Part shown: piece after piece, positions 1-28,684 of the stretch
How the letters are laid out: each line of letters begins with the position of its first letter
Numbering within the stretch: position 1 is the first letter of the stretch
Virus record (IMG/VR): IMGVR_UViG_2695420576_000005
Location: 1-34,113 of that record
Length of the DNA stretch: 34,113 nt
Origin: a virus
Lineage: Duplodnaviria > Heunggongvirae > Uroviricota > Caudoviricetes
Strand: one strand, 5' to 3'
Made by a program: the position numbers and the translations under genes
The notes under the pieces: generated by a model
The model's input: only the letters and a program-made list of their open reading frames with translations
Told to the model about the DNA's origin: nothing
Database searches by the model: none

Positions 1-2
1 TG

Positions 3-863
3 GCATTATTACTGGAGCCACTGCAGTTCACCTTTATGAGTCACGCACTGCTGATTTCACTGGTAGTTTCCATACCCTGTGCGCTGCTGTCGGTCTTTCT
101 GGTCCTGAAAGGTTGGGCACTGATGGGTGACGCGATGAGTCATGCGGTTTTTCCTGGCATCGTGCTTGCCTGGATTCTGGGGTTACCTCTGGCTACAGGG
201 GCATTCGTCGCCGGAGTATTCTGCGCGGTGGCGACGGGATACCTGAAAGACAACAGCCGAATCAAGCAAGATACAGTGATGGGGATTGTTTTTTCTGGCA
301 TGTTTGCCGCAGGTCTGATCTTGTATATTGCAGTCAAACCAGACGTACATCTTGACCATATTCTTTTCGGCGACATGCTCGGGGTAACCATCGGCGATAT
401 AATCCAGACGGTGATTATTGCCGGGCTGGTTACACTTGTTATTAGCGTAAAATGGCGGGATTTTTTTCTGTTTTTGCTGTTCAGCTTTGATTATCAACAG
501 GCGCAGGTAAGCGGTTTGCATACGAGATGTCTGCATTATGGGCTGCTGTGCATGGTCTCTCTGACCATTGTGGCGACGCTGAAAGCGGTAGGTATCATTC
601 TCTCCATTTCTCTGCTCATTGCGCCTGGCGCCATTGCGGTACTCCTGACACAACGCTTTCATATTGCGCTCCTACTGGCGATTGGCATATCGGTAATAGT
701 GTCAATGACTGGTGTCTGGTTGTCCTTTTTTATCGACAGTGCACCAGCTCCGACGATTGTCGTCTTATTCGCGGTTGTGTTCATCATGACGTTCACCGTT
801 ACCAGCATCAACGCACGCACAAAGGGAAACACCCATACACAGGATTTGTCATCACCCAATTAG
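3..863 (+). CDS. sitD: Mn2+/Fe2+ ABC transporter permease, SitD/MntB (ABC-3) family; 5'-partial
   Basis: Track ORF 36..863; the same frame is open back to nt 3 (ALLLEPLQFTF precedes the first Met), so the start lies outside the window. Polytopic hydrophobic protein resembling SitD-type permeases by recall. Confidence 0.7.
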   Translation, partial: ALLLEPLQFTFMSHALLISLVVSIPCALLSVFLVLKGWALMGDAMSHAVFPGIVLAWILGLPLATGAFVAGVFCAVATGYLKDNSRIKQDTVMGIVFSGMFAAGLILYIAVKPDVHLDHILFGDMLGVTIGDIIQTVIIAGLVTLVISVKWRDFFLFLLFSFDYQQAQVSGLHTRCLHYGLLCMVSLTIVATLKAVGIILSISLLIAPGAIAVLLTQRFHIALLLAIGISVIVSMTGVWLSFFIDSAPAPTIVVLFAVVFIMTFTVTSINARTKGNTHTQDLSSPN

Positions 864-1214
864 CACAACATCCGAGGGCAGCATCGTCCGCTGGCCCACA
901 GAAGTCCGGAAAGTCATGGAAGGTCGTTGTTGGGAGGAGGTACAAATTCTCTCATGCAAAAAATACGTAAAATCGATAATAGCTGGAAATAATTCAATAC
1001 ATGCACTCTCGAAAGTGCATCAGCCAACCACAGAACGTTATCCCACACAACGTGCCTGCGGCATAATCCCAATGATTACTCCCTGACAGGGTTCGTAGGC
1101 CACTCAATATCAGGTGCAGTTGATGTATCAACACGGTTCAGCAGCATCCGATACTTTTTCCAGGCTTCCAGCAACGGGGTTTCTTCCTCCGTTGCATATA
1201 CAGCTCACCTTTTT

Positions 1215-1508
1215 TCACCCACGATTAACCAACAGCCAGACCAGCAGACACGCCACCACCGGCACAGCAAAATCCATCAGGCTTGCCACATCCCATGCAC
1301 GTGTATCAAAACCGCCCCACCACGGCATATTCATTCGCTTGCCATGCCCGAACATTTCGATCCAGCGATATTCTGCCTGGGTGTGTTCACGCGCAATGAA
1401 GAACGTACAACCGGCTATCGCCCCGTAAGCCCAGTTCCCGGTAAAAAGACCAATCAGTAGCTGCGCAGCCACAGCACAAAGCGCATGAAGGAAAGGTGTT
1501 ATATCCAT
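1215..1508 (-). CDS. small hydrophobic membrane protein, unknown function
   Basis: Track ORF 1215..1523 (102 aa). Start probably the third Met (MDITPF..., ATG 1506-1508, AGGA-type RBS just upstream) because the first codons overlap the upstream terminator hairpin. Two hydrophobic segments; no family recognised. Confidence 0.45.
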   Translation of the reverse strand: MDITPFLHALCAVAAQLLIGLFTGNWAYGAIAGCTFFIAREHTQAEYRWIEMFGHGKRMNMPWWGGFDTRAWDVASLMDFAVPVVACLLVWLLVNRG

Positions 1509-1521
1509 TTTCATCCTACCC

Positions 1522-1548
1522 AATAAAACGGGGCGCTCGGCCCCTTAA
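1522..1548 (-). terminator. rho-independent terminator after the tail-fibre genes
   Basis: GC hairpin ggggcgctcggcccc (1531-1545) followed on the minus strand by GTTTTATTGG; lies 6 nt downstream of the stop at 1551. Confidence 0.5.
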
Positions 1549-1550
1549 TA

Positions 1551-2594
1551 TTATTTAGACGCAAGCGCCGCCTCAATTGCAGATAATCTTTGTCTTAATT
1601 CTGCGTTTTCTTCTTCCAGTGCTGTTATTCTGTCGTCTGACTCTCTGGCTACCTGAACAAGCAAGCCAGTAACACCAGAATAATCTACTGTGTAATAACG
1701 TTCACCTTCTTCACCTTCCGATCCGCTCGCACCGTCCTGATATTTCATTGCGGAACCTACAACTTCTGGGATTGCTTCCAGAGCTTCCTGTGCAATGACA
1801 CCAGCATAGGGCATACCGTTTTCTTTAAGCGTGTATGTATAGCCGTTCATTTTACGGATGCGGTCGGTTGCATTATCGATCACCTGAATGTTGTCTTTCA
1901 GATCCCGGTCGGAATGCTGGTTAAATGCGGTGGCATGACATGCACCATTAACGCTTAACATATAGGTGTTATCGGTATTTTTCTGCGCATAGAACATATA
2001 AGCGCCACCATAGCGAACACCGACTTCATAAACAACAGGACGGCTGGAGTTGCCCCACAATTGAGCAGTAACACCAGCATAAGCGGTTCCCTGTGTGTTT
2101 AATGTCATGGTTGACCCATGATTGGCATATTTGATCTGTAATGTGTCGGTGTAATCAAATTTAATAAGCGCGTTACTTCCACGCTTGCTGTATGACATAA
2201 GGCAGTTACCCATTTTGAGGTATCCGCTGTCACCGGGAAAAATCATCGTACCGCCATAAAGGTTGGTAAAGTCCCAGCAAATGTTTGTCCCGTTATCGTT
2301 CAGGTTAAGGCGCGCCATTGCGTTACCTGGACTGTCTATCCATTTTTTGAGGTATAGTTCGCAATACGCATCCTCAACACCTGCCGTCCTGTGAGTTGAG
2401 CGGAGTTTTCTCCCAAATATAGCTCCGCTAGTTGGCAATACCTGCTGATACCATGAAGCAGACCAGTCACCAACGATTTCATCTTTGCTGTCTACATATA
2501 ATTTTGTTGCGTAGCTTCCTTGATCGTTTTTTAATTTGCTAACGTCGGATTTTAGCGTTTTGATGTCATCAGGAATTACTGTCGATGTAGCCAT
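1551..2594 (-). CDS. tail fibre/tailspike-like protein with C-terminal intramolecular chaperone (peptidase S74-like) domain
   Basis: 347-aa ORF. C-terminal ~110 aa (SDRDLKDNIQVIDNATDRIRKMNGYTYTLKENG...YAGVIAQEALEAIPEVV...ITALEEENAELRQRLSAIEAAL) matches, by recall, the self-cleaving chaperone domain of endosialidase/T5 L-shaped-fibre type proteins. Confidence 0.65.
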   Translation of the reverse strand: MATSTVIPDDIKTLKSDVSKLKNDQGSYATKLYVDSKDEIVGDWSASWYQQVLPTSGAIFGRKLRSTHRTAGVEDAYCELYLKKWIDSPGNAMARLNLNDNGTNICWDFTNLYGGTMIFPGDSGYLKMGNCLMSYSKRGSNALIKFDYTDTLQIKYANHGSTMTLNTQGTAYAGVTAQLWGNSSRPVVYEVGVRYGGAYMFYAQKNTDNTYMLSVNGACHATAFNQHSDRDLKDNIQVIDNATDRIRKMNGYTYTLKENGMPYAGVIAQEALEAIPEVVGSAMKYQDGASGSEGEEGERYYTVDYSGVTGLLVQVARESDDRITALEEENAELRQRLSAIEAALASK

Positions 2595-2603
2595 TTTTCT
2601 TCC

Positions 2604-2885
2604 TCACATCCAGCCACGAAGTTGATGCTCAACAGCAACCACGTATTCATCGAATAATGACGATATTTGCGAATCATTAATGATGCGCACGTTTACAAAA
2701 TATCCGTCTTCCTTAACACATACCGGTTCGCCATCTTCAGTCAGTTCTCCGGTTTCTTTGTACACGTTACCTATCACGTCGATAAGAATATCATCCTGCA
2801 TCGACTCGTCATCATAATAGCCAATACTCTCCATAAAGGCCGAAAAGTCGGCCCTGTCTTCAAATTTGAGTGTTAAATCTTTCAT
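2604..2885 (-). CDS. acidic 93-aa protein of unknown function, translationally coupled to stf
   Basis: Track ORF 2604..2885; its ATG (2883-2885) overlaps the stf stop (TAATG). No recognisable family; sits where Tfa would be in lambda. Confidence 0.5.
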   Translation of the reverse strand: MKDLTLKFEDRADFSAFMESIGYYDDESMQDDILIDVIGNVYKETGELTEDGEPVCVKEDGYFVNVRIINDSQISSLFDEYVVAVEHQLRGWM

Positions 2886-5284
2886 TAGATTGACTCCCCC
2901 ATTTGTGCCTCAGTTAATTCTTTATGCCAAATGCGTAAATTTTTCACATGACCGAACAGGTGTCTGTTGCCACTGGATGATTGTCCACCGATATTAATAT
3001 TACCGGCAGTATAACGTTGCAATGTATGCAGAGACGGGGAGCTGCCACCTAAAATTCCATCAACAACAACCTGCAACTGTTTATCTTCTGTAAACTTAAA
3101 GCCAGTAACAAATTTCCTTTTCTCTCTATTCCCATATGCTTTATATTCTGTTTTTGTTCCTTTGCCATTGGTGATAATTAGCCTTTTACCACGAGTGGTA
3201 AAACCAAAATACATATAACTTTCATCAGAAACTTCAGTCGTCGCCCCTGTAATTGAGATATTAAGCAAACGCGCAGAGCCTTCTAAATTAGGCATTTCAG
3301 AATCCCAATTAACATTAACTTCCATGAGAACACTAACTGGTGGAGTTGCCCAATTGAAAGGTATAGGTATGATTACCTGGTCACTTGCTCTCGTGGCACC
3401 GACCTCTGTTGTGATGATAAAAGATGACGCGTTTAGTCCCTTTTCGAATTGAGGGGTTGTTAACATTAATTTATCGCCAGACTTGATTGATCGTTGATGT
3501 GCTCCAAACTCAAAACGCCCATACATATTTTTTGCTTCTGGTGATTTGTAGGTAAACTCAACACGAATCCATCCATTAGACTCTCTGAATATGTTATAAG
3601 TTGCCGCCTCACCTCCAGAATAACTCAACATATCGCCAGTCTCGCAATCAATATATGCGCCAGCGGTCAGTGTGTTACTTGAGCCATCGTCGTTAACATA
3701 TGATATTCTTGGACGCAACGTGATAATACCATCCCCACTTACTTTTTTAACTCTGCAGGATAAAGTAACTGATTCATTTGCCGAAACTGAAATAACCCTG
3801 GTATATCCAGTAGAAATTAATGTCGCCCTTTCAGTTGTGGATGTTTCTTTAACGCCAAACAAACCATAACTGAAACCATACTCATCAACTCCCGTGGTAA
3901 TAGTTAAGTTAGCAGTGTCATAGTTCCACGATACTGGTGTATTCGTATAAGAAAAAGTATTCGTTCTCTGACCTTCAATGAGCAGACCATCTTTTTCAAA
4001 ACGTGGTTCATTTATCGCTGATTCAGCAAAACACCCAGACTTATCTATATACGTTGCAGTTGACGCCCTGGTAAATGAAACAACCTTTTCAGACGGCAAT
4101 GCAATAACATCGTCACCAACTGTGATGCTCTTATATCCAGGAGCAAACCCGGTAATCATATCCAGTGAATCGTTAAACGGTATCCACACCTCAGGTAACG
4201 GCTGTAAGACATATTTATACGGCTCCGCAGCCTGGCTTGCGTACTCTCTGGCTGCATCTTCGCTTGCTTTAGCTGCCGTCTGGCTTGCTGCCGATGCTTT
4301 CGCTGAGTTCGCAGCCGCTGTTTCGCTCGCCTTTGCGTTGGTTTCACTGGTTTTTGCTGCTTTTTGACTGTTAGCTGATGCAGTGGCAGAAGCAGCCGCC
4401 GCACTTGCAGAACCAGCTGCAGCACTCTCGCTTTCAGCTGCTGCAGCCTGACTACTTTTCGCCGCAGTTTCACTGGCTTTGGCATTCGTTTCGCTGGTCT
4501 TCGCTGCTGTCTGGCTGGACTTTGCGTTAGTTTCACTCGTCTTCGCAGCTTTCTGGCTGTTAGCCGCAGCAGTTGCTGATCCGGCTGCTGAAGTCGCAGA
4601 ACCGGCCGCCGCACTCTCGCTGTCAGCTGCTGCATCCTGACTGCTTTTCGCCGCAGTTTCACTGGCTTTGGCATTCGTTTCGCTGGTTTTCGCTGCCGTC
4701 TGGCTGGACTTCGCGTTGGTTTCGCTCGTCTTTGCGGCTGTCTCACTGTTTTTCGCGTTGGTTTCTGATTTTTTGGCTGCAGTCGCGGAGTTTGCCGATG
4801 CAGTCTGTGAGGCCGCTGCCGCCTGTGCGCTGTTAGCTGCGTTCGTTTCTGAGGTTTTCGCCGCGTTCTTCGATGATGCCGCTGCTGTTTCGGATTTCTT
4901 TGCCGCCGCTGCGCTCTGAGAGGCGGCTTCAGCGTTGCGTGCCGCTTCTTCCACCATTTCCTCAAAACGACGCAATGCCTCCGGCATGACATCATCTTCC
5001 GTCATGGCACCGAGAAAATCATTCAGCGTCCCCGGCTTAGAATCTTCATACACGGTGATGGTCCCGGCATGTGAAGGCGGAAAACCTTCAACCAGCAGGA
5101 TAACGCTGTACTGGCCATACTCAACATCCATGCTGTAACGCCCGGCTTCATCCGGATTTTCAGAGGCCACCGTGTTCACCAGTACCGTGGTGCTGTTACG
5201 CTTTGCCTTCAGTTGAATAGTGCAGTTCTGTATTGGTTTTCCCGCACCATCTTTCAGCACACCTGAGATTTTTACTGCTGCCAT
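2885..5284 (-). CDS. stf: side tail fibre protein Stf (lambda-like N-terminus, Ala/Ser/Thr repeat shaft, divergent C-terminal domain)
   Basis: Track ORF 2885..5290 (801 aa). MAAVKISGVLKDGAGKPIQNCTIQLKA... is near-identical to the lambda Stf N-terminus; lambda-equivalent ATG at 5282-5284 with GGAG RBS. The C-terminal ~450 aa are unrelated to lambda Stf. Confidence 0.85.
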   Translation of the reverse strand: MAAVKISGVLKDGAGKPIQNCTIQLKAKRNSTTVLVNTVASENPDEAGRYSMDVEYGQYSVILLVEGFPPSHAGTITVYEDSKPGTLNDFLGAMTEDDVMPEALRRFEEMVEEAARNAEAASQSAAAAKKSETAAASSKNAAKTSETNAANSAQAAAASQTASANSATAAKKSETNAKNSETAAKTSETNAKSSQTAAKTSETNAKASETAAKSSQDAAADSESAAAGSATSAAGSATAAANSQKAAKTSETNAKSSQTAAKTSETNAKASETAAKSSQAAAAESESAAAGSASAAAASATASANSQKAAKTSETNAKASETAAANSAKASAASQTAAKASEDAAREYASQAAEPYKYVLQPLPEVWIPFNDSLDMITGFAPGYKSITVGDDVIALPSEKVVSFTRASTATYIDKSGCFAESAINEPRFEKDGLLIEGQRTNTFSYTNTPVSWNYDTANLTITTGVDEYGFSYGLFGVKETSTTERATLISTGYTRVISVSANESVTLSCRVKKVSGDGIITLRPRISYVNDDGSSNTLTAGAYIDCETGDMLSYSGGEAATYNIFRESNGWIRVEFTYKSPEAKNMYGRFEFGAHQRSIKSGDKLMLTTPQFEKGLNASSFIITTEVGATRASDQVIIPIPFNWATPPVSVLMEVNVNWDSEMPNLEGSARLLNISITGATTEVSDESYMYFGFTTRGKRLIITNGKGTKTEYKAYGNREKRKFVTGFKFTEDKQLQVVVDGILGGSSPSLHTLQRYTAGNINIGGQSSSGNRHLFGHVKNLRIWHKELTEAQMGESI
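4380..4760. repeat. 189-bp (63-codon) tandem direct repeat inside stf, two near-identical copies with degenerate flanking copies
   Basis: ttttcgccgcagtttcactggctttggcattcgtttcgctgg occurs at 4456 and again at 4645 (period 189 bp); the protein shows repeated AKTSETNAKSSQTAAKTSETNAKASETAAKSSQ blocks. Confidence 0.75.
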
Positions 5285-5294
5285 ATCCACTCCA

Positions 5295-5322
5295 CAAAAA
5301 AGCCCGCCTGAACCGGCGGGCT
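5295..5322 (-). terminator. rho-independent terminator between lom and stf
   Basis: 7-bp GC stem gcccgcc/ggcgggc (5302-5321) followed on the minus strand by TTTTTGTGG. Confidence 0.6.
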
Positions 5323-5348
5323 GTCATAACACTGTGTTACCTGGCTAA

Positions 5349-5948
5349 TCAGAACTTATAACCGACACCCACGATGAAACCGTCAGTGCGCCAGTCACCA
5401 CTGCCGGAGCCTTCATAAGCAATATCAATGGCCACGGATTCGGTCGGGTTAAACTGCACGCCAGCTCCCCACGCCAGAGACGTGTTGCTGTGGCGACCGT
5501 CATCACTTCCGGTCAGCACATCGTGCGTTTTCCCCTTGTTGTCAGTTACGCGGAGGTAATCCCCGGAAAAAGTCGAAACACGGCTGTAAGCCATACCCGC
5601 CATCGCATACGCGCTGAACCATTCATTCACGCGCACAGACGGCCCCGCCATCACGCTGAACCAGCGGTTACGCACGGAATCTTTATGCCAGCGGGTATCG
5701 CTGTAACGGGTCAGCTGACGATTCTTGTATCCTGCATAACTGAATGACGTCACCAGCCCCAGCGTGTCCGTAAATTCATAACGGTATTTCACGTTAATGC
5801 CCTTCAGGTCATCACTGCCTGGCATATCAGTATGGGTCTGAAGATACCCGGCGCTTAGTGTGGACTGATGCTCTGCTGCGCTCGCTGGCGTACCAGCGGC
5901 AACCAGCCAGACTACTGCGGACAGAATAACAGCACATAATTTACGCAT
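5349..5948 (-). CDS. lom: Lom/Ail/PagC-family outer membrane protein
   Basis: 199-aa ORF with signal peptide; C-terminus ...AYEGSGSGDWRTDGFIVGVGYKF matches lambda Lom; located directly after J as in lambda. Confidence 0.85.
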   Translation of the reverse strand: MRKLCAVILSAVVWLVAAGTPASAAEHQSTLSAGYLQTHTDMPGSDDLKGINVKYRYEFTDTLGLVTSFSYAGYKNRQLTRYSDTRWHKDSVRNRWFSVMAGPSVRVNEWFSAYAMAGMAYSRVSTFSGDYLRVTDNKGKTHDVLTGSDDGRHSNTSLAWGAGVQFNPTESVAIDIAYEGSGSGDWRTDGFIVGVGYKF

Positions 5949-6015
5949 AATTACCTCTCGCTTTTCTGCAATAAAAAAGGCGTCATTTCTGACGCCCGTA
6001 TTGGGGTTATAAAAT

Positions 6016-9000
6016 TCAGCTGATACTGATGCCTGCAGTGGCTTTCTTCATCACAACAACCAGCAAATCGCTGATACTTGCTGTGGGATACCAACCATTT
6101 ACCCACCATGCTGATACAGAAAACTCCAGTGTCATTACACCACTGCCTGCAGGCATATCAATAACACCCGTGTAAATCAGAGTATTATCCAGAGCCGTTC
6201 GGTTATAAATTTCAGCCCCGTTTTTCTTCACTATCAGGCGGCATGACGAATAAGTATCGCTATTCTCCCGCTCATGTCTGGCACCGCAGAAAGCCCACCG
6301 CTGGAATAACAATTTGCCGGTCAAACGACTGATCGTCATAAACCCTGACGGTAATAGTCCCTGATGGCCACCGCTCCGGTGCACGGGAGTCCCGGGGGAA
6401 AGCTTTGCCCACTGTTTTAACGAGATCGCCTTCAATCTGGTTCGCGGACAGTTTTCCCAGAACCCGACAGTTCTCGTTAATCGTGACATTATTGAGCGTC
6501 CCGGAGTTCGCATTCACGTTACCGCTGATATCGGCATTTTTCGCCGTCAGCCGCCCGTCCGGTGTCAGGGAAAATACCGGAGGATTGCCGCCACTGGTAA
6601 TGGTGGGAGCCGTCAGATACTTCAGGAACACTTCGTTCATGAATATCTGGTTGCCCTGCGCCACAAACATCGGCGTTTCATTCCCGTTTGCCGGGTCAAT
6701 AAACGCGATACGGTTAGCGGCAACCAGGAACTGGCTCAGTTTGCCTTCCTCCGTATCCTCCATACTAAGGCCAAGCCCCGCGACATAATGCCTGCCGTCT
6801 TCGGTCTGCTCAATTTTGACGCCCCACATGGCATTCCATTTATCGTTGGCGTCCTTCCACTCTTTCGAAAACTCCTCCAGTTTGCTGGCGTTATCCTCCG
6901 TCAGCTCGACTTTTTCCAGCAGCTCCTTGCCGAGATGGGATTCGGTTATCTGGCCTTTGAAAAAATCCAGGTAACCTTCCGCATCATCGCTCGGCTGACC
7001 AACAGCCTCCACGAATGCCGATTTGCCAACGGTGTTCACACTGCGGATATAAAAGTAATAATCATGGCCCGGTTTGATATTGATACTGGCAGCTATCCAG
7101 TACAGCGCCGTACCAAGATAGCGGGCTGTGGTCTCAACCTGCCTGATATCGGTAATCCGCTTTTCCGAGAACCAGAACTCAAACTGTACCGTCGGATCAT
7201 AAACCGCAAGATGCGGCGTGGCAGTTATCTGAAAATAGCCCGGCGTCAGCTCAATCCGCGACGGCGCTGCCGGTGCGGCAATCCGGAACGATACCGATGC
7301 CGGATCGCCCTGCTGTCCCCACGCATTTACCGCCCGGACCGTCAGCGTGTAACGCCCCAGCGCCAGTTGCCTGAAGCGGTATGTGGTTTCCGTCGTCCTG
7401 GCCGTGCTGACCAGCCGCTCACTGCCGTCATCCGCTGCCACGGTCAGGCGAAGCATAAAGCTCACCCCCTTCACCACCTTCGGCGTATCCCAGCGCGCCA
7501 GCACCTGATACTCCCCGCTGTCTGAGGTGACTTCGGCAGTCAGGTGCTGCACCGCAGGCGGCGTGACACCATTCACCGTGCCGCTCTGGTCGCCGTCAAA
7601 GTGCGCCCCGTTATCCACGATGGCCTCTTTTTCCGGCACATGCTGCACGGCGGTGATGGCATACGTGCCGTCGTCGTTCTCACGGATACTCACGCAGCGG
7701 AACAGGCGCTGGCGCAGCGTCGGCAGCTTCAGCCCCCATACGCTGTATTCAGCAACACCGTCAGGAACACGGCTCACTTTTACCTTCACGCCGTCGGTGA
7801 CGGACTGAACCTCCACGCTGACCGGATTGCCACTTCCGTCAACCAGACTTATCAGCGTGGTACCGGAGGATGGCAGCGTGATTTCACGGTCGAGCGTCAG
7901 CGTCCGGGTCTGGCTGTTCACCGCCAGCACGCGCAAGCCGATGCTGATACCCGCATAGTCATCATCACAGATTTCAATGACATCCCCCGGTACATGGCGA
8001 AGCCCTTCCGCACCCACGCTGAAGTCCACGGTCTGCGTTTCCAGCAGTTCCGTTTTAATCAGCCACAGCCCGGCGCGGTGCGCCTGCCCCCGGCTGGTAC
8101 AGCCAAAGGCATCCATCTTCGTGACGTTACGACCGTAACGGGCAATGGCCTGCGTATCTTCAACAAGCTCTGTCGCCGTCTCCCAGCCGTTGTTCGGGTC
8201 AATCCAGTTCACCTCAACGGCATTATGGCGGTCCTTCAGGGCGCTGAAGCTGTAGCGGAACGGCGCGCCATCATCCGGCATCACCACATTACTGCGGTTA
8301 TAGGTCCACACCTTATCTGATGGTCGGTCCTGCACGAACGTCAGCGTCTGCCCGTTCCATACCGGCATACAGCGCATCGCCGAGCAGAAATCACTGAGCA
8401 CATCCCACGCCTTGCGCTGTGTGGTCAGCCAGGCATTACAGGTGATGCGCGGCTCCGTGCCACCAAAGCCATCCGGCACCGACTGGTCGCAATTCTGGCC
8501 GATGACATACAGCGCCCATTTGTCCACATCCGCCGCACCGAGACGCTTCCCCATGCCGTAGCGCGGATGGGTCAGCATATCCCACAGACACCAGGCCATG
8601 TTGTTGCTGTATGCTGGCTTAAACGTTCCGTCCCAGATACCGCTGTATTGTCGCGTCTGCGGGTTATAGTTCGACGGCACCTGCAGAATGCGCCCGCGAA
8701 GATGATAATTACGACTCACCTGCTGGCTGCCGAACTGCTCCGAGGGTCCACCTGTACGCTGACCAGTGCCGTGTTCGGGTAGCACTGTTTCACATCGATG
8801 ATTTCGGTGTATGACGACCAGAGCGTTTTGTTCTGCAGCTGGTCTGTGGTGCTGTCCGGCGTCATCCTGCGCATCCGGATATTAAACGGGCGCGGCGGCA
8901 GGTTATCCACCACCACCGAGGCCAGATACTGCGAGGTGGTTTTGCCTTTAATGGTGATGTCTTTTTCCGTCACCCAGCCACCGTTACGCTGTATCTGAAC

Positions 9001-9414
9001 CAGCAGGCGGACTTCCGACGGATTCCGGTCCCCCTTTGAGGTGGTTTCCACCAGTGCCTGCACACCGAAGGTAAAGCGCAGACGGTCGATGTTTGCAGAC
9101 GTGATGGTCCGGGTAATCGGCGTGTCGTACTTCACTTCCGTACCCAGCACCGTCTCGGAGCCGGAGGATTCAAATCCCTCCGGCGGTGTCTGCTCCTGCT
9201 CACCTGCCCGGAACACCACCGTGACACCGGAGATATTGGTATTCCCCTCACTGTCCAGCACCGGCGTACTGTTCAGCAGCACACTTTTTAATCCGTCCAC
9301 CGGACCTTCAATCGGCCCTTCACTGATGGCGTCTATCACGCTCAGCATCTGGGATGATTTCAGGTTGTCCTTCGCTTCGCGCGGGGTATGCCCCTTACTG
9401 CTGCCTTTACCCAT
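6016..9414 (-). pseudogene. J: tail tip / host-specificity protein J, interrupted by two frameshifts
   Basis: Three collinear ORF pieces (8716..9414, 6272..8785, 6016..6513) each match successive parts of lambda J. The span is 3399 nt, the intact lambda J length. Frame changes at about 8744-8747 (C run) and 6290-6293 (T run). Confidence 0.85.
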
Positions 9415-9475
9415 TCCTCACGCTCCAGAAACGAACAAAACCGCCCTGAGGCGGTTTCACACAAAACATTCTGCA

Positions 9476-10123
9476 TCAACGACCAATCACCACAACCTGA
9501 CCACCATCTCCTTCATCTGCCGTGCTGATCTCCTGCGAAATCACCCGTGACCCCACGCGCATTTCACCGTACAGAACCGGCAGAACATTGCCCTGGGCAA
9601 CCATGTTATCCAGTGAGGAGAAATAGGTGTTCTGTTTGCCGTTATCCGTTGTCTGTGTACGGGGAGTTCTGGCTTTCGGTGCCAGCATCTGCGCCACACC
9701 ACCGAGCACCATACTGGCCCCCGCACCATACATTCCTGTAATTGCGGCAGCCCCCAACCAACCTGCAGGGTTCCACCATGCCACCGCAATCAGCGCCGCC
9801 CCCAGCACAGCCTGAAAAACACCGCCACTTTTGGCTCCCGCCAGACGCGGCACAATGTGGATCACGGCACCATTTGCCAGCGGTTCATTAAGACGGGCAG
9901 ATAATTCAGTTTCACCTGCATCACGCCCGGCAATACGTACCTGATACCAGCCGTCGCTCAGTTTCTGACGAAACGCCGGAAGCTGTGTGGTCAGCGCCCG
10001 GACTGCTTCGGCCCCCGTTTTCACACGCAGGTCGATGCGGCGGCCAAATCGTTGTAAATCCCCGTAAAGGCAGATTCGCGCCATGCCCGGTGACGCCAGA
10101 GGGAGTGTGTGCGTTGCTGCCAT
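9476..10123 (-). CDS. I: tail assembly protein I
   Basis: 215-aa ORF MAATHTLPLASPGMARICLYGDLQRFGRR... matching lambda gpI; overlaps the 3' end of K by ~100 nt as in lambda. Confidence 0.85.
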   Translation of the reverse strand: MAATHTLPLASPGMARICLYGDLQRFGRRIDLRVKTGAEAVRALTTQLPAFRQKLSDGWYQVRIAGRDAGETELSARLNEPLANGAVIHIVPRLAGAKSGGVFQAVLGAALIAVAWWNPAGWLGAAAITGMYGAGASMVLGGVAQMLAPKARTPRTQTTDNGKQNTYFSSLDNMVAQGNVLPVLYGEMRVGSRVISQEISTADEGDGGQVVVIGR

Positions 10124-10764
10124 TTGTCGGTATACCTCTCTCGTTTACTCAGTTGTTCAGGAATATGGTGCAGCAGCTCGCCGTCACCACAGTAAATGGC
10201 GGCATGATTCGGCACCGATGAACCAAAACAGCACAGCAGCACATCACCCGGTTGTGCTGATGACAACGGCACCTGATACAGCCCTGTGGCCTCCAGATTA
10301 TCCAGATAGAGATTCTGGCCGTTACGCCACCAGTCATCCTCACGATGAAAATCCGGCATCTCAATCCCCGCCAGATGGTAAGCGTCCCGGAACAGCGTGT
10401 AACAATCCGTCACCCCGTGCTCAAAGCGCCGCCCGGTAAGATGCGGCACACAGCGGAATTTATGAATCGCCCCCCGGCAGACCAGCCACCATGGCAAATC
10501 ACTCTGCACCTGCAGCCGCCGGTCAGCCTCACTCAGCCAGGGCAGGCCACCGGGGTGGCTGTGGACCAGCGCCACAATCTCACCCTGCATCTCTGCCCGC
10601 AGCCAGTCCTCCGGCGACATCCGGAAATAATCCTCCGGCTCACCGGAGATATTCACGCAGGGAAAATATCTTTCCCCTTCCGACGTTCTCACCACGAAGC
10701 CGCACGACTCCGCTGGCGCACATCGCCGGGCGTGCGCCAGAATCGCTGATTCTGTCTCTGTCAT
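10021..10764 (-). CDS. K: tail assembly protein K (MPN/JAB plus NlpC/P60 domains)
   Basis: 247-aa ORF MTETESAILAHARRCAPAESCGF... with HSHP and DCYTLFRDAYH motifs; lambda K is annotated from the internal Met (MSPEDW..., 199 aa). Confidence 0.85.
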   Translation of the reverse strand: MTETESAILAHARRCAPAESCGFVVRTSEGERYFPCVNISGEPEDYFRMSPEDWLRAEMQGEIVALVHSHPGGLPWLSEADRRLQVQSDLPWWLVCRGAIHKFRCVPHLTGRRFEHGVTDCYTLFRDAYHLAGIEMPDFHREDDWWRNGQNLYLDNLEATGLYQVPLSSAQPGDVLLCCFGSSVPNHAAIYCGDGELLHHIPEQLSKRERYTDKWQQRTHSLWRHRAWRESAFTGIYNDLAAASTCV

Positions 10765-10769
10765 GGGAT

Positions 10770-11468
10770 TTACTGCGAAAGTTTGTTAATGGAAAGGAAG
10801 CCGCCAAAGTTGCCGACATTATTGCGGAACTCACAGCCACTCAGGCATTTGCTGCATTTATCCTTCGTGATTTCGGATGTCGGCTGGTCATATTCATCCG
10901 CGACCGCCGGACCGTGATAACCGCACTCATCACCGCGATAGGTCCAGGTGCAGGTATTAGCAAGCATGATGCGCCCCGGAAAAACGGCACCATCCGTTTC
11001 CGTCGGCGTGGACAGTACAAAAGAGGCACTGACCGCGCTCAGTTCGCTGCACTGCTCGATGCGCCAGCGGCTGATCACCTCCTGCTCCGGATCGGCGTCG
11101 CTGTTTCCGTTGACGAAGTTCACCGCATCCAGAAAACGGGCATAAACCTTACGCCTGACCACCGTTCCGCCGACCAGACTCTGCAGGTCTTCCGCCATCC
11201 CGGTGACCATACCGTACAGGTTAGAAACCGTCAGCGTGGGGCGCGTACTGGTGCCTTTGCCATTCAGTTCAAAACCACTCCCCTGAATGGGATACGGCTG
11301 ATACTGTCGCCCCTGCCAGGTGACCGGCTCACCTTTTTCGTTCTGCTCATTACAGAAAAAATAACGTTCTCCACCGACCTCTGTCAGGTCGATTTCCCAG
11401 AGCACCACGCTGGCCGACTGCTCCGCACGGGTGCATTCATTCAGTGTTTCCTGCCGGATATCCTGCAT
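10770..11468 (-). CDS. L: tail tip protein L
   Basis: 232-aa ORF MQDIRQETLNECTRAEQSASVVLWEIDLTEVGGERYFF..., same length and sequence as lambda gpL by recall. Confidence 0.9.
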   Translation of the reverse strand: MQDIRQETLNECTRAEQSASVVLWEIDLTEVGGERYFFCNEQNEKGEPVTWQGRQYQPYPIQGSGFELNGKGTSTRPTLTVSNLYGMVTGMAEDLQSLVGGTVVRRKVYARFLDAVNFVNGNSDADPEQEVISRWRIEQCSELSAVSASFVLSTPTETDGAVFPGRIMLANTCTWTYRGDECGYHGPAVADEYDQPTSEITKDKCSKCLSGCEFRNNVGNFGGFLSINKLSQ

Positions 11469-11797
11469 CAGTTCACCACCTGTTCAAACTCTGCGCTGAA
11501 CTCAACACGCAGCATACTGACCCGCGACGACCATTTTGCGCAGGTCACCTTTATCTGCCGCCACTCATAAGGCGGCGTCCACAGAAAGGCTTTCCAGCCC
11601 CCGTGCTCTTCCAGAAACGACTCCAGCGCCGCGGCCTCCCAACGGGGAACAGAAAGCGTCACGCTGTACGTTTTCAGGTTGGCATTCAGCCCGGCAGGCG
11701 CTCGCTGGGAATAGCCATCACCAAAGCGCACCTTTCTTACAGAAGGGGCCGAAGCCACATCCATACCGGGTTTCACTTTCCAGCGGAAGGTTTTCAT
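11468..11797 (-). CDS. M: tail tip protein M
   Basis: 109-aa ORF MKTFRWKVKPGMDVASAPSVRKVRFGDGYSQRAPAGLNANLKTYSV..., lambda gpM. Confidence 0.9.
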   Translation of the reverse strand: MKTFRWKVKPGMDVASAPSVRKVRFGDGYSQRAPAGLNANLKTYSVTLSVPRWEAAALESFLEEHGGWKAFLWTPPYEWRQIKVTCAKWSSRVSMLRVEFSAEFEQVVN

Positions 11798-14363
11798 CGT
11801 CCACCTCCGGAGAACAGACCACCATCACGCATCTGAGCCCGGTCACAACATCCATTGCCGCCTTACGGGCTACGTCATAAACAGCCTTCAGCGCCTGTGG
11901 CCCTATCTGACCGTTCGTGCCGTCGTTGTTAATCACCACATGGTTATTCTGCTCAAACGTCCCGGACGCCTGCGACCGACTGTCCGCCATGCTGCCCGGT
12001 GTACCGACATAACCGCCGGTGGCATAGCCGCGCATAAGCCGGTAAAGATTCCCCACGCCAATCCGGCTGGTTGCCTCCTTCGTGAAGACAAATTCACCAC
12101 GGTGAACAATCCCCGCTGGCTCATATTTGCCGCCGGTTCCCGTAAATCCTCCGGTCGCAAAATGGAATTTCGCCGCAGATGCCTGAATGGCTGTACCGCC
12201 TGACGCTGATGCACCGCCAATGACACTCCCGACACTCCCGACGATCCCCACCATTGCCTGCTTAAGCAGAATTTCTGTCATCATGGACAGCACGGAACGG
12301 GTGAAGCTGCGCCAGTTCTGTTCACTGCCGGTCAGCATCGCCGCCATATTCTGTGCAATACCATCAAAGGTCTGCGTGGCTGCACTTTTTACCTGCGACA
12401 TACTGTCCGTGGCGCTCTCTTCCCACTCACTCCAGCCGGACTTCAGGCCTGCCATCCAGTTCCCGCGAAGCTGGTCTTCAGCCGCCCAGGTCTTTTTCTG
12501 CTCTGACATGACGTTATTCAGCGCCAGCGGATTATCGCCATACTGTTCCTTCAGGCGCTGTTCCGTGGCGTCCCGCGCTGCCTGCCGGTCAGTCAGCCCC
12601 CGGTTTCAAGTCGCCTCAATGGCTGCCCGTTTTGCCCGTTGCTGCTGTGCGAATTTATCCGCCTGCTGCGCCAGCGCGTTCAGGTGCTCCTGATACGTGA
12701 CCTTATCGCCAAGTGCAGCCAGCTGGCGTTTGTACTCCAGCGTCTCATCTTTATGCGCCAGCAGGGATTTCTCCTGTGCGGACAGCTGGCGACGTTGCGC
12801 CGCCTCCTCCAGTACCGCGAACTGACTTTCCGCCTTCCACAAATCCCGGCGCTGCTGGCTGATTTTCTCATTCGCTCCGGCATGCTTCTCCAGTGTCCGG
12901 AGTTCTGCCTGAAGCGTCAGCAGGGCAGCATGAGCACTGTCTTCCTGACGATCGCCCGCAGACACTTTCACGCCGGACTGCTTCGGCTTTTTCAGCGTCG
13001 CTTCATAGTCCTTTTTCGCCGCCGCCATCAGCGTGTTGTAATCTGCCTGCAGGATTTTTCCGTCTTTCAGTGCCTTATTCAGTTCCTCCTGGCGGGCGGT
13101 ATATTTCTCCAGCGGTGTCTGCAGGCGTTCGTAAGCCTTCTGCGCCTCTTCGGTATATTTCAGCCGTGATGCCTCAGACGAGGCCCGATCTTTTGCTGCC
13201 ATCTCACTGGCCTTTTCAAGATCTGCCTGCAACGTGGCGGCTGAAAGCCCAAGTCGCGCATTCTCTCTCTTCTCCCATGCCCCCCGGAGATTGGCAAGAA
13301 ATGCTGACGTTTTACCGCGCCGGTGGCTTCGGCTCTGATACCACTGCCATTTTTTATCCGCTTCATCAAAAGCCTTTTCAGCTTTGGCGAGCATATCTGC
13401 AGAGGAGTCCGGGCGACCAATATCCAGCACCGCATCCCACATGGATTTGAATGCCTGTGCAGTCTTGTCTGCCCAGGTCTCCAGCGTACCCATGTTATCT
13501 TTCAGTTTACGGGTCTGGTCATCAAACCCTTTCGTTGCGGCCTCGTTCGCCGCCTGCAATGCCCCGGCCCCATCGCCGGAACGCTGCAACTGAGCAACAT
13601 ACGCAATCTGTTCCGCCGTCACGTTATGGAACTGGCGCGCCATCGCCGTCAACCCAGACGTCGGGTCAGTGGTCAGCTTCCCGAAGGCTTCAGCGACCTT
13701 GTCCACCTCCACGCCGGATGCAGAGGAGAAACGCGCCACACTCTGGCTGATTGCCTCAAACTGCTCACCACCACGCACACCGGCATTCACCAGCGCCGTC
13801 AGTGACTCGCTGGTCTGGTTAAACGTCAGCCCTGCCGCCTGCCCGGATCTGGACAGGGCCAGCATACGATCTGCCGTCAGTCCCGCCTGATTACCGGAAA
13901 GGACCAGCGTTTTATTGAAATTGGACAGGGTTGAGTCACCCTGATACCAGGCATACGCCAGCGCACCGGTCGCCACCGCCAGCGAAGTGATACCAACCAT
14001 CGGCAGGGTGATCGCACCGGCAAGCCCCCTGAACATGGGGATCATCCCGCCGAAGGAGTCCTTCACCTGACCACCCTGTTGCAGCAGGATGAGCCACGGA
14101 TTCTGCCCCCCTGCAAGCTGCGTGGCCACGTCGGTGAACTGCGCAGGCAGCATACGCATGGCAGCTTTATACTGCCCGACGGAAATCCCCGCTTTCTGTG
14201 CAGCCAGCGCCTGCCGGTTCATTGACTGTTCAACGACTGCCGCTGTTTTTTTCGCATCACTTTCCGTACCGGAAAAATGACGCCTGACTCTGGCCATCTG
14301 CTCGTCAAATCTGGCCGCATCCAGACTTAAATCAACGACCAGATCGCCTACCGGTTCAGCCAT
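11794..14363 (-). pseudogene. H: tail tape-measure protein H, interrupted by an in-frame TGA and a 3'-terminal frameshift
   Basis: ORFs 12606..14363 (585 aa) and 11718..12509 (263 aa) are in one frame separated by TGA at 12606-12608. The conserved C-terminus ...QMRDGGLFSGGGR* (stop 11794-11796, overlapping the M start as ATGA) lies in a different frame. Confidence 0.85.
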
Positions 14364-14790
14364 ACCGGACTCCTCCTGCGATCCCTTCTGATACTGTCAT
14401 CAGCATTACGTCATCCTCCATCATGTCCGCCACATACGGGGAAGCGGGGATAACTTCATTCCCGTCCGGGCCAAAACGAACGCCTCCGGCAAGCCCTGCC
14501 GCTTTCTGCATCAGCACATCATCTTCAGGCTCTTCGTCAGCCTCGCGCCGGTTAAGCAGACTGAAATCCAGCGGATGCATATCCGGATCGCTGAAAAACA
14601 GGCTGAGCACGGTGTACGTCAGCCCGGAAAAGTGCATATCCAGCAGAACATCATGAAAATAATGGGTACTGTAAAAGCGGTGCCAGTCGGCATACTCCGT
14701 GGATGACATCCCGGCAAGCATGGCGCGCCAGTCGGGTCGCCCCATCTCACGCGCCAGTTTCAGGGCAAAACTCAGCTCACCGACGAACAC
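14356..14790 (-). CDS. T: T-frame segment of the G-T tail assembly chaperone fusion
   Basis: 144-aa ORF VFVGELSFALKLAREMGRPDWRAMLAGMSSTEYADW... matches the lambda gpGT C-terminal portion; begins immediately after the slippery heptamer. Confidence 0.75.
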   Translation of the reverse strand: MFVGELSFALKLAREMGRPDWRAMLAGMSSTEYADWHRFYSTHYFHDVLLDMHFSGLTYTVLSLFFSDPDMHPLDFSLLNRREADEEPEDDVLMQKAAGLAGGVRFGPDGNEVIPASPYVADMMEDDVMLMTVSEGIAGGVRYG

Positions 14791-14796
14791 TTTCCC
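14790..14796 (-). promoter_or_regulatory. programmed -1 ribosomal frameshift slippery heptamer GGGAAAG (G/GT site)
   Basis: Plus-strand ctttccc at 14790-14796 is GGGAAAG on the minus strand, followed by the T-frame ORF exactly as in lambda G-T. Confidence 0.7.
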
Positions 14797-14823
14797 GCAG
14801 AAACAGGCTCTGCAGGCCCGGCG

Positions 14824-15198
14824 TCAGACGAGGGCCTGTTCAGGGGAATTATTCACCACAAACTCAGACATTCCGGACAGACGTAACACCACGTTTTCAG
14901 CCTGAGCAATTGCCTCCGTGGGCCAGGTGGTAAGCACTTCCTGCTCAATCTGCGTAATGGCTTCATTCATGGACGGCAGCTTTGTCTTCTGCGGATGGTT
15001 ATGCCACAGAGACATCGCCACCAGAAACGCCCCGCCTCTGATAAGATCCTCTACAGACACCTGCAGGTTGCCGCTGGATTCAGCCTTTTTTTCCTGCTCT
15101 TTCAACCAGGCAAGATGCTCAATACGCTGCAGGGCTGACAGTTCAGAAAGCGTGACGGTCACGCCGTTATGTTCAAATGATTCTGTTTTCAGGAACAT
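14824..15198 (-). CDS. G: tail assembly chaperone G, truncated: 3' end out of register with the slippery site
   Basis: 124-aa ORF MFLKTESFEHNGVTVTLSELSALQRIEHLA... matches lambda gpG (140 aa) but stops at TGA 14824-14826; the conserved tail SSDAGPAEPVSAGKCSS and GGGAAAG lie in the +1 frame. Confidence 0.75.
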   Translation of the reverse strand: MFLKTESFEHNGVTVTLSELSALQRIEHLAWLKEQEKKAESSGNLQVSVEDLIRGGAFLVAMSLWHNHPQKTKLPSMNEAITQIEQEVLTTWPTEAIAQAENVVLRLSGMSEFVVNNSPEQALV

Positions 15199-15213
15199 CG
15201 CTGACTCTCCGGA

Positions 15214-15954
15214 TTAACTGGCGGTGACGGTGATTTCTGCAACCGCAGCAAACTCACCATTACCGGATACAACCGGAATGTTGACCTTGCCTGCAGCAAC
15301 GCCGTTCACGGTGATGGTCATACCACTGACCGACACGGTGGCTTTTGTTTTATCCGCTGACACCGCACGGAAGCTCTTGTCGGTTGCGCCTTCCGGCTGG
15401 AATGCCACGGTCAGCGTCGTGCTCTGCCCTTTCACTACGGAAGCACTGGCTGGCGTTACCGTCATGCCGGTGGCCGCTGTTACCGTGCTGCGATCTTCCC
15501 CCATCGACGGGCGTCCCACATTGGTGACCTTCACCGTGCGGGTGATCACTTCCTTCGCCGTCACCGCTTTACCGATACTGCTGACCCAGCCACGGAACAC
15601 ATCGACCGTGCCGTTCGGGAAGCGGATTTTATAGGCACGGGTATCACCTTCATTAAACCACGCCAGCAGCGCCTGCTGCCCCTGCTCTCCGGGCATCCAC
15701 GCCAGCGTGAAGCTGGTATCTCCGGCTGATTTCTGCCCCTGCCCGGTCGCAGTCCAGTCCGCATCCTCATCATCGAGATAACTGTCGTCATAGGACTCAG
15801 CGGTCAGTTCGCCGGGCGTCAGGTCTTTAACTTTTGCCAGACGCGACCAGTCAACGTCTGAAAGCGGGTTCGCATAAGGGTCACCGTTCCCCTTATAAAC
15901 CCATAGTGTGGTCCCGGCCCCTTTCACCGGCATTGTAGGATTTGGTACAGGCAT
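15214..15954 (-). CDS. V: major tail protein V
   Basis: Track ORF 15214..15984; lambda-equivalent start [22 protein letters not shown]... at ATG 15952-15954 with GAGGA RBS; 246 aa ending ...AEITVTAS. Confidence 0.9.
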
Positions 15955-15961
15955 ATCGTCC

Positions 15962-16357
15962 TCACATTTCATAGGTAATGACATACGTCAGATCGGCTGA
16001 ACTCCACAGGCCCGCATCATCGTCGCGTCGGTAGTCATAGCCACTGGCCACCATACTGGTGATCAAATCTGACAGTGCCGGAATATCGCTCATCACCGGA
16101 TAAATCCGGGACTCCATCCACGAATCCAGCTCTGAATCCGGCACCTGAGCAGGCAGGAAAACTTCAATATGCAGCTCCGCCTGCCAGGTATCGCTGTCCA
16201 GCTCTTCGCCCGTGTATTCAGCGCCGGTGAGATAAACGGCAATTGCCGGAAAATCCGCCTCATCAAAAACAGCGGGGCGACCATCAAAAAGCGTCGCCCC
16301 GGTGTCATGCTTCTCCAGTGCATCCAGTACGGCTGCACGGAGTTCAGTATGTTTCAT
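15962..16357 (-). CDS. U: tail terminator protein U
   Basis: 131-aa [46 protein letters not shown]..., lambda gpU. Confidence 0.9.
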
Positions 16358-16932
16358 CGCTTTATTACCATTCTCAGTTGATGCTGCAGCGCATAGCCCA
16401 GCTCTTTCGGAAGACGCTCACGCCGTATCCGTTCAATATTCTGTTTAAACGCCGTGGTCAGTGGCACCGCCATCGGGATTTTCACCACATCAATGGGGTA
16501 ACGGTTTTTCCCGGCCACACGCTGCATAACATGCCAGCGGCCATTTTTCAGTTGCTGAATAAACGCGCCGGGAATACGACGGTTTCCCACCACAAGCACG
16601 CTGCCGCCACCTTTCAGGGCTGAACGCTGCCCCTTTTTACGACGCCTGCGTCGGGACAGGACAATCCGCGCGTTACCCAGCTTTATTACGGGCAAATCCC
16701 CCCGGTTAACCTTGATTCTGGCCTGCGGATTTTTAACCGTGGCCCTTTTCAGCCTGGCCCTTTCCTTTACCAGTTTCCGGCGTACCTTTGTCTCACGGGC
16801 AACCTGTGACGCCGACTGCGATATCGCGGATGAAGCAACGCGGTTAATGGCCATTGCGGCGGCACCAGGCACCGCCGTTTTGCTGATACGGCTGAGGTTT
16901 TCAACGGCCTGCTCAAGACCTTTTATGGCCAT
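16354..16932 (-). CDS. Z: tail completion protein Z
   Basis: 192-aa ORF MAIKGLEQAVENLSRISKTAVPGAAAMAINRVASSAISQ..., lambda gpZ; ATGA overlap with U. Confidence 0.9.
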   Translation of the reverse strand: MAIKGLEQAVENLSRISKTAVPGAAAMAINRVASSAISQSASQVARETKVRRKLVKERARLKRATVKNPQARIKVNRGDLPVIKLGNARIVLSRRRRRKKGQRSALKGGGSVLVVGNRRIPGAFIQQLKNGRWHVMQRVAGKNRYPIDVVKIPMAVPLTTAFKQNIERIRRERLPKELGYALQHQLRMVIKR

Positions 16933-16943
16933 ACATCCCCCTT

Positions 16944-17297
16944 TCAGCGGCGACGGTTAACGGCAGGCGGTACGCCCCGTCCAAGCCAGAGATGACAGCT
17001 TCCGCCATCATCCGGCGAAACACGATCTATCCAGAAGTTTTCCTCACCGATGGTCAGCGTGTCTCCACGCCGCAGTTGCCGCACATCATCAGTCCGGACA
17101 AACAGGGACGGGCTGGAGCCTTCAACGCGCACGCCCTGTCCGGCATAGCTGATATTTTCAGGGTCATCAAAAACACCACGTATTACTGCGCCGGACTGCT
17201 CACCGGATGTCATGGTGGCTGACGTTCCCATGTACCCGCGTATCGTTTCATCGGTGCGGGCAATGGCAGCATCGAACAGGTTATCGAAATCAGCCAC
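16944..17297 (-). CDS. FII: head-tail joining protein FII
   Basis: 117-aa ORF MADFDNLFDAAIARTDETIRGYMGTSATMTSGEQSGAVIRGVFDDPENISYAGQGVRVEG..., lambda gpFII. Confidence 0.9.
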   Translation of the reverse strand: MADFDNLFDAAIARTDETIRGYMGTSATMTSGEQSGAVIRGVFDDPENISYAGQGVRVEGSSPSLFVRTDDVRQLRRGDTLTIGEENFWIDRVSPDDGGSCHLWLGRGVPPAVNRRR

Positions 17298-17308
17298 AGC
17301 GCCTCCCG

Positions 17309-17707
17309 TTATTGCATTCTGGCCAGGCCGCGCTCTGTCATTTCAGCTGCCACACCGGCAGAGACACGGAACGCCGTTCCCGGCAGCACAAATGCCACAG
17401 GTTCATCCCGCGTGGCGTGAAGTGCATCAGTATGCAGCGTCACCAGTGCCACGACCGTGACCAGTTCAGCCGTATCCTGAATCACGGTATCCGGCTGCGC
17501 TGATACCACCTCATGTTCATGCCCGGTCAGCACATTTTCCGGGCTGAGAGGGGTATCCTGACCGGCAGTGTCGCCCGTGTCATCAAGCTCCTCTTCCAGC
17601 TCTGCCACACGGAGCGCCAGTTCTTCTTTCGTCCCCGTCAGACTGACATCACGGTTCAGTTGTTCACCCAGCGAGCGGAGACGGGCAATCAGTTCATCTT
17701 TCGTCAT
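17309..17707 (-). CDS. FI: DNA packaging protein FI
   Basis: Track ORF 17309..17746; lambda-equivalent start MTKDELIARLRSLGEQLNRDVSLTGTKEELALRVAEL... at ATG 17705-17707 (132 aa). Confidence 0.85.
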   Translation of the reverse strand: MTKDELIARLRSLGEQLNRDVSLTGTKEELALRVAELEEELDDTGDTAGQDTPLSPENVLTGHEHEVVSAQPDTVIQDTAELVTVVALVTLHTDALHATRDEPVAFVLPGTAFRVSAGVAAEMTERGLARMQ

Positions 17708-27563: not shown

Positions 27564-28684
27564 ATGAAAAAATTAACAGTGGCAATTTCTGCTGTAGCTG
27601 CATCAGTACTGATGGCGATGTCTGCTCAGGCAGCTGAAATTTATAATAAAGACAGTAACAAGCTGGATCTATACGGGAAAGTTAATGCCAAGCACTACTT
27701 TTCCTCTAATGATGCAGATGATGGTGATACTACTTATGCCCGTCTTGGCTTCAAAGGTGAAACCCAAATCAACGATCAACTGACTGGTTTCGGTCAGTGG
27801 GAATATGAATTCAAAGGCAACCGTGCTGAATCTCAAGGTTCTTCCAAAGACAAAACCCGTCTTGCATTTGCAGGCCTGAAATTTGGTGATTACGGCTCAA
27901 TCGATTACGGCCGTAACTACGGTGTAGCATACGACATCGGTGCGTGGACTGACGTCCTGCCAGAATTCGGTGGTGATACCTGGACCCAAACAGATGTGTT
28001 CATGACTGGTCGCACTACTGGTGTTGCAACTTATCGTAACAACGACTTCTTTGGTCTGGTCGATGGCCTGAACTTTGCTGCTCAGTATCAGGGTAAAAAT
28101 GACCGCACTGACGTAACTGAAGCCAACGGTGATGGTTTCGGTTTCTCCACTACTTATGAGTATGAAGGATTCGGCGTGGGTGCAACCTATGCTAAATCAG
28201 ATCGCACTGACGGTCAGGTCGCCTATGGTAAGAGCAAATTCAATGCCTCCGGCAAAAATGCGGAAGTATGGGCTGCAGGCCTGAAATATGATGCGAACAA
28301 TATCTATCTGGCTACCACATATTCTGAAACTCAGAATATGACCGTTTTTGGTAATAACCATATTGCAAACAAAGCACAAAACTTTGAAGCAGTAGCACAA
28401 TATCAGTTTGACTTCGGTCTGCGACCATCTGTTGCTTACCTTCAGTCAAAAGGTAAAGACCTTGGTGTTCATGGTGACCGAGACTTAGTCAAGTATGTCG
28501 AGTCTTAGTCAAGTATGTCGATGTAGTCAAGTATGTCGATGTCGGTGCTACTTACTACTTTAATAAAAACATGTCCACTTTTGTTGATTACAAAATCAAC
28601 TTAATTGACGATAGTAAGTTTACCAAAACAGCTGGTATTGATACCGACGACATCGTCGCTGTAGGTCTGGTTTATCAGTTCTAA
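27564..28684 (+). pseudogene. nmpC: prophage-encoded OmpC/NmpC-family general porin, reading frame broken 60 codons from the 3' end
   Basis: ORF 27564..28508 (314 aa with signal peptide [23 protein letters not shown], then [16 protein letters not shown]...). Downstream in another frame is an intact porin C-terminus ...[54 protein letters not shown] (stop 28682-28684). Confidence 0.85.
28485..28539 (+). repeat. imperfect tandem triplication of a 16-20 nt unit (ttagtcaagtatgtcga) causing a 38-nt insertion in the porin gene
   Basis: Copies at 28485-28501, 28505-28521 and 28524-28539, separated by gtc and tg. Deleting 28486-28523 restores a continuous porin frame. Confidence 0.8.

Follow-up and report, generated by a model that had tools for sequence, protein, structure and literature searches.

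In a deposited sequence of a lambda-like E. coli prophage, the tail tape-measure gene H is shifted out of frame close to its 3' end by a two-nucleotide insertion. The frameshift is genuinely present in the sequence as deposited, which we analysed over a window of 34,113 nt (the whole stretch of DNA under study). Comparison with near-identical genomes indicates that it is probably a consensus error, introduced during sequencing or assembly of a low-quality draft, and not a mutation of the prophage. We observed the insertion itself, its privacy and an insertion-only pattern of small changes along the whole contig, and from these we infer a technical origin for that pattern. The underlying phage would then be an ordinary lambda-like prophage at icd with an intact H, and two spurious bases would have entered after codon 841 as one of many small insertions scattered along the contig. 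A sequence-only reading had proposed a frameshift lesion near the H 3' end; alignment bears out the lesion, but damage to the prophage is the less probable interpretation of it. Draft-assembly error is judged more probable than prophage decay because the same insertion-only pattern recurs, at the same rate, in neighbouring chromosomal genes.

All genes of the tail module lie on the minus strand, with H (from 14363) following T (14356–14790) and preceding M and L (10770–11468). The gene order G-T-H-M-L and the overlap of the H stop with the M start are those of a lambda-family H, and relatives are annotated with an identical 4-nt H/M overlap. What the window lacks is an uninterrupted H frame of ~853 codons ending ...QMRDGGLFSGGGR. 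In three-frame translation, the body frame opens with the ATG at 14363 (MAEPVGDLVVDL...), meets an in-frame TGA and then continues in the same frame to ~11837, recognisable H sequence after the TGA reaching ...ALKAVYDVARKAAMDVVTG. Past that point the body frame reads ...ARKAAMDVVTG-LRCVMVVCSPEVDDENLPLESETRYGCGFGPFCKKGALW*, running 80 nt through M from 11797 to 11718, and the conserved end QMRDGGLFSGGGR sits in a different frame. Intact H in other strains ends ...VVTGQMRDGGLFSGGGR, its stop overlapping the M start. Translation and sequence thereby confirm what had been read from the letters alone: a canonical stop joined to M as ATGA in a frame other than that of the body, a shifted body terminating 80 nt inside M, and an H span of 2570 nt (14363–11794).

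Table 1. Features of the H–M region of the window (positions in window coordinates).
Feature	Position	Strand	Details
Gene H, lambda-family tail tape-measure protein	11794..14363	-	2570 nt; two interruptions
Upstream lesion, A -> CTTG (+3)	12606..12610	-	AAA (Lys586) -> ACT-TGA; stop 12606-12608; from alignment
2-nt insertion, coding strand GACCGGG[CT]CAGATG	11836..11837	-	From alignments with relatives
Out-of-frame H tail	11718..11835	-	39 unrelated codons (LRCVMVV...GALW) + TGA 11718-11720; ORF 11718-12509; from translation
ATGA overlap	11794..11797	-	Canonical H stop TGA 11796-11794; M start ATG 11797-11795; from sequence
Gene M, minor tail protein	11468..11797	-	109 aa; intact; full-length Pfam Phage_min_tail match

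The two fragments together retain the domain content of the family. Pfam finds TMP_2 (PF06791) in the 585-aa H fragment (E 1.4e-71) and Tape_meas_lam_C (PF09718) in the 263-aa fragment (E 1.8e-22); the intact 854-aa H of a relative carries both. M is base-for-base the same as in the closest genome and untouched by the H shift. Judged from its frames, H as written is either a gene remnant or an error-bearing gene, and full-length gpH could not be made from it.

To place the lesions, the H region was aligned with that of phage Lambda_4B5 (97.3% identity) and of three complete E. coli genomes (99.1–99.7%), the closest genome also being aligned over the whole window. In all four of these relatives the tape-measure gene is annotated as intact. 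In the alignment, a +2 shift of H follows codon G841 of 854, 13 codons ahead of the stop, and the last 13 conserved residues give way to 39 unrelated ones; the insertion is lacking in every relative aligned. Its placement is ambiguous within plus-strand positions 11835–11837 (TC at 11835–11836 is equally valid), and it falls at the lower edge of the interval, about 11836–11861, in which a net frameshift had been predicted. The nearest intact H alleles measure 2565 nt, and the excess of 5 nt in the window arises because the +2 insertion adds to the +3 of the stop-creating event upstream. Only five differences separate the window from the closest genomes over 4.1 kb, the CT insertion among them.

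Gene H of lambda itself likewise lies between T and M, encodes TMP_2 and Tape_meas_lam_C and overlaps M by ATGA. The relatives' intact allele can be aligned over its full length with lambda gpH (PDB 8IYK), with the last 13 residues identical, a diverged central segment and 854 codons against 853. Unlike lambda H, the frame in the window is broken twice, by TGA at codon 586 and by the +2 shift after codon 841. The C-terminal helix of lambda gpH spans residues 818–842 (modelled to 849); it builds a three-helix coiled coil within the tip lumen (PMC10721106) and rests on the gpI plug (PMC10721106; PDB 8IYK, 9E7M). A shift at codon 842, if real, would change the very end of this anchoring segment.

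Natural use of the longer frame by the phage, or recovery of the conserved end through programmed ribosomal frameshifting, is scarcely credible. In lambda-type tail modules the adjacent G-T genes do use a programmed -1 shift, and a -1 slip after the CTC codon in H would yield ...TGLQMRDGGLFSGGGR, the conserved end with one additional Leu. The H frame, however, contains no in-phase X XXY YYZ slippery heptamer anywhere (codon by codon, the site reads ACC GGG CTC AGA), and the two-frame arrangement occurs in no relative, full-length matches from 1,084 genomes all being without the 2 nt; on these two grounds both variants were set aside. The stop 770 nt upstream would, moreover, cut H regardless. 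The alternative tail is merely an out-of-frame reading of M, and every relative retrieved has an intact gene annotated; natural use of the longer frame, which had been named as a possible refutation of the lesion, is seen in none of the relatives aligned.

The insertion is private to a single deposited contig. A 120-nt query centred on it was run by megablast against 5,426 complete E. coli genomes and matched 1,084 of them over its full length; none of these matches contains the 2-nt insertion; the best, at 118/120, is without exactly those two bases. The insertion was likewise not found when GTDB species representatives, IMG/VR and JGI metagenomes were scanned for the exact pattern, and an exact-product look-up returned no identical product on record for the 263-aa shifted ORF, for which the assembly's own gene call uses a later start (245 aa). 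The truncated 585-aa H product is on record on one contig only, AOQH01000090.1 (55,674 bp), from an NCBI draft of 2013 era in which the insertion lies at about record position 33081. Window positions 9606–17363 and a second stretch reaching window 1–12594 match this contig exactly. Since the broken product occurs on one contig and the window matches it exactly over these two stretches, the lesion belongs to the public draft assembly GCA_000397345.1.

Independent complete genomes hold the same prophage with 0–1 differences in 34 kb, and near-identical copies occur in ExPEC isolates of human and canine origin from the USA, China and Korea. The prophage sits at icd, with an icd 3' remnant at one end and intact icd adjoining int at the other. 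In the relatives it comprises int, xis, exo/bet/gam, a repressor, O, P, lysis, head and tail genes, with sitABCD, iss, a porin and emrE as cargo; every structural gene is intact in GN02350. A view of the prophage as cryptic throughout the relatives was rejected, given the presence of early genes and the intact structural genes. The stf-like side-tail-fibre gene (2885–5290, minus strand) is a continuous 801-codon ORF both in the window and in GN02350; RefSeq annotation splits the GN02350 stf region into three pieces, one of them a pseudogene, which is an annotation quirk and not a lesion.

These sister genomes made it possible to count private differences over 42.6 kb of the contig, namely the 34.1-kb window and 8.45 kb of upstream flank. 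GN02350 (human blood, USA) and Z0117EC0117 (dog, Korea) lie one SNP apart over 34 kb, and against both of them the window has 95 private alignment columns, grouped into 28 events. Nine are insertions (+9, +3, +1, +2, +1, +2, +3, +4 and +38 nt; 63 nt in sum), and alignment with these near-identical complete genomes over the 34.1 kb revealed no private deletions. Window substitutions include multi-base replacements (TC>GA, CC>AA, TG>CC, CACT>AAAA).

The same pattern extends beyond the prophage. The flank is chromosomal DNA carrying ymgC-ariR-ymgA-ycgZ, bluF, bluR, ycgX and sitABC, and against three complete genomes, which themselves show 0–1 differences in the region, it has 5 private insertions, 0 deletions and 7 substituted columns. 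In total, 37 private events fall in the 42.6 kb, among them 14 small insertions and 0 deletions (binomial p = 1.2e-4). Bacterial genomes have a known deletion bias, and the 14:0 split runs opposite to it. The window has 0.82 events per kb and the chromosomal flank 1.07, with private small indels at ~1 per 3 kb independent of gene function. H carries 4 events where 2.2 are expected (P = 0.19), showing no enrichment, and 4 of the 14 insertion lengths are divisible by 3, about the one third expected without selection. These private, one-directional indels are spread evenly over functional and dispensable genes, as expected of error. About half of the private insertions are short tandem duplications. 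By our own count from the alignments, about 10 of the 16 single-base changes are transversions; on one strand, T>G occurs 6 times and A>C never, a spectrum unlike natural E. coli polymorphism. Private insertions also lie in the chromosomal iron/manganese transporter genes sitA and sitD, so the lesions are not prophage-specific. On this comparison, the event pattern resembles residual consensus error, and does not resemble natural divergence or prophage-specific decay.

The main competing reading takes the event as a true, recent, strain-private 2-bp insertion that inactivated the H C-terminus in a decaying prophage, alongside the lesions in G, H and J. Ribosomes would then pass the M start and end 80 nt inside M, breaking H-M termination-reinitiation coupling; the TGA at codon 586 would already abolish H, leaving the +2 shift redundant. 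We regard this as possible but rather unlikely. The sequence does stand in the public record, and several tail genes are struck (G once, H and J twice each), genes that in a prophage are dispensable to the host. Many of the insertions resemble slippage duplications, which replication slippage also produces, and the altered H tail is the very end of a C-terminal coiled coil, where a change would plausibly matter to the phage. Against it, like events are equally dense in chromosomal DNA, sitA and sitD included, and the combination of 14:0 insertions, multi-base substitutions and transversion excess fits no known natural spectrum. Scaled to 5 Mb, moreover, the observed rate would give >1000 indels, though the isolate's relatives hardly differ from one another.

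Tail-gene pseudogenisation in defective lambdoid prophages of E. coli offers a partial parallel: the prophage as written would be unable to build tails, its G, H and J genes being broken by frameshifts and a premature stop. The case differs from such prophages in that sister genomes have intact genes and a full early region at icd, and the lesions extend beyond the prophage. Artefacts of low-quality drafts share with the present sequence the scattered private indels, the insertion-only bias and broken genes that are intact in near-identical sister genomes. They differ in that the inserted CT does not alter the length of a homopolymer, and here the artefact is inferred from assemblies, not reads. 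Being neither a homopolymer nor a tandem-duplication change, the CT insertion misfits the textbook error of any one platform. A further alternative is that the insertions are real and stem from an unusual mutational process whose sole products are small insertions, imperfect tandem duplications of short length and replacements of several bases. Some events would then be templated (the hairpin at 13180–13181; the G event at 14827–14833 copying TCAGACGAGG), and the H shift would be one footprint of the process; we consider this very improbable.

Should consensus error be the correct explanation, the record would describe an ordinary, apparently intact lambda-like phage at icd, with "lesions" that are neither decay nor pseudogenes to count. 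Should the mutation be real, it would strike, redundantly, a tape-measure gene that the upstream stop already truncates. The frameshift finding is ordinary under either reading and carries little biological weight. Its practical bearing is a caution for AOQH01000090.1: for any frameshift, premature stop or odd small duplication there, an assembly artefact should be suspected first.

Other private events were recorded in further genes. In gene G (minus strand), TCT is replaced by GACGAGG on the plus strand at 14827–14833, a private complex insertion (+4) that cuts gpG short at ...PEQALV*; the G-T slippery site GGGAAAG (14796–14790) lies about 30 nt further downstream. Truncation before the slippery site means that neither full gpG nor the gpGT fusion would be made as written. 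The tail-tip gene J (minus strand) has a private +2 (G>GGG) at 8744–8745 and a private +1 (CC>CCC) at 6294, and is split into ORFs 8716–9414, 6272–8785 and 6016–6513; in GN02350 it is intact (1131 aa). The sitD gene carries a private +9 at window 462–470, an imperfect duplicate of TTTTTGCTG, and sitA, upstream of the window, carries a private +3 (GTT) and a private, frameshifting +2 (AC) at window coordinates -1916 and -1757. The prophage porin gene (ompC in the relatives' annotation; plus strand) is frameshifted by a private 38-nt insertion at 28486–28523, an imperfect triplication of TAGTCAAGTATGTCGA.. with units of 20 and 18 nt, which looks like a gap-closure or overlap artefact.

Several substitutions also have local structure. 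The same 10-mer, TCAGACGAGG, is made by two separate private events, at 13180–13181 and 14824–14833, and the TC>GA change at 13180–13181 also perfects the hairpin GCCTC-AGAC-GAGGC. The shared 10-mer could hint at template switching; we rejected it as a significant signal, as a rough estimate puts chance coincidence at 0.1–0.2. SOLiD colour-space translation errors were also considered and found unsupported: worked by hand, one mapping fits TC>GA and CC>AA and misfits TG>CC and CACT>AAAA. Private single-base changes at 4436, 4472, 4622 and 12228 each equalise one copy of a nearby direct repeat with the other (stf 4434–4480 versus 4623–4670; GACACTCCCGAC twice in H), which could reflect repeat collapse in assembly or gene conversion. 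A remnant of a tail-fibre-assembly gene contains 8 substituted bases within 26 nt (1030–1055), a cluster that looks like a short recombination patch, unlike the scattered events elsewhere.
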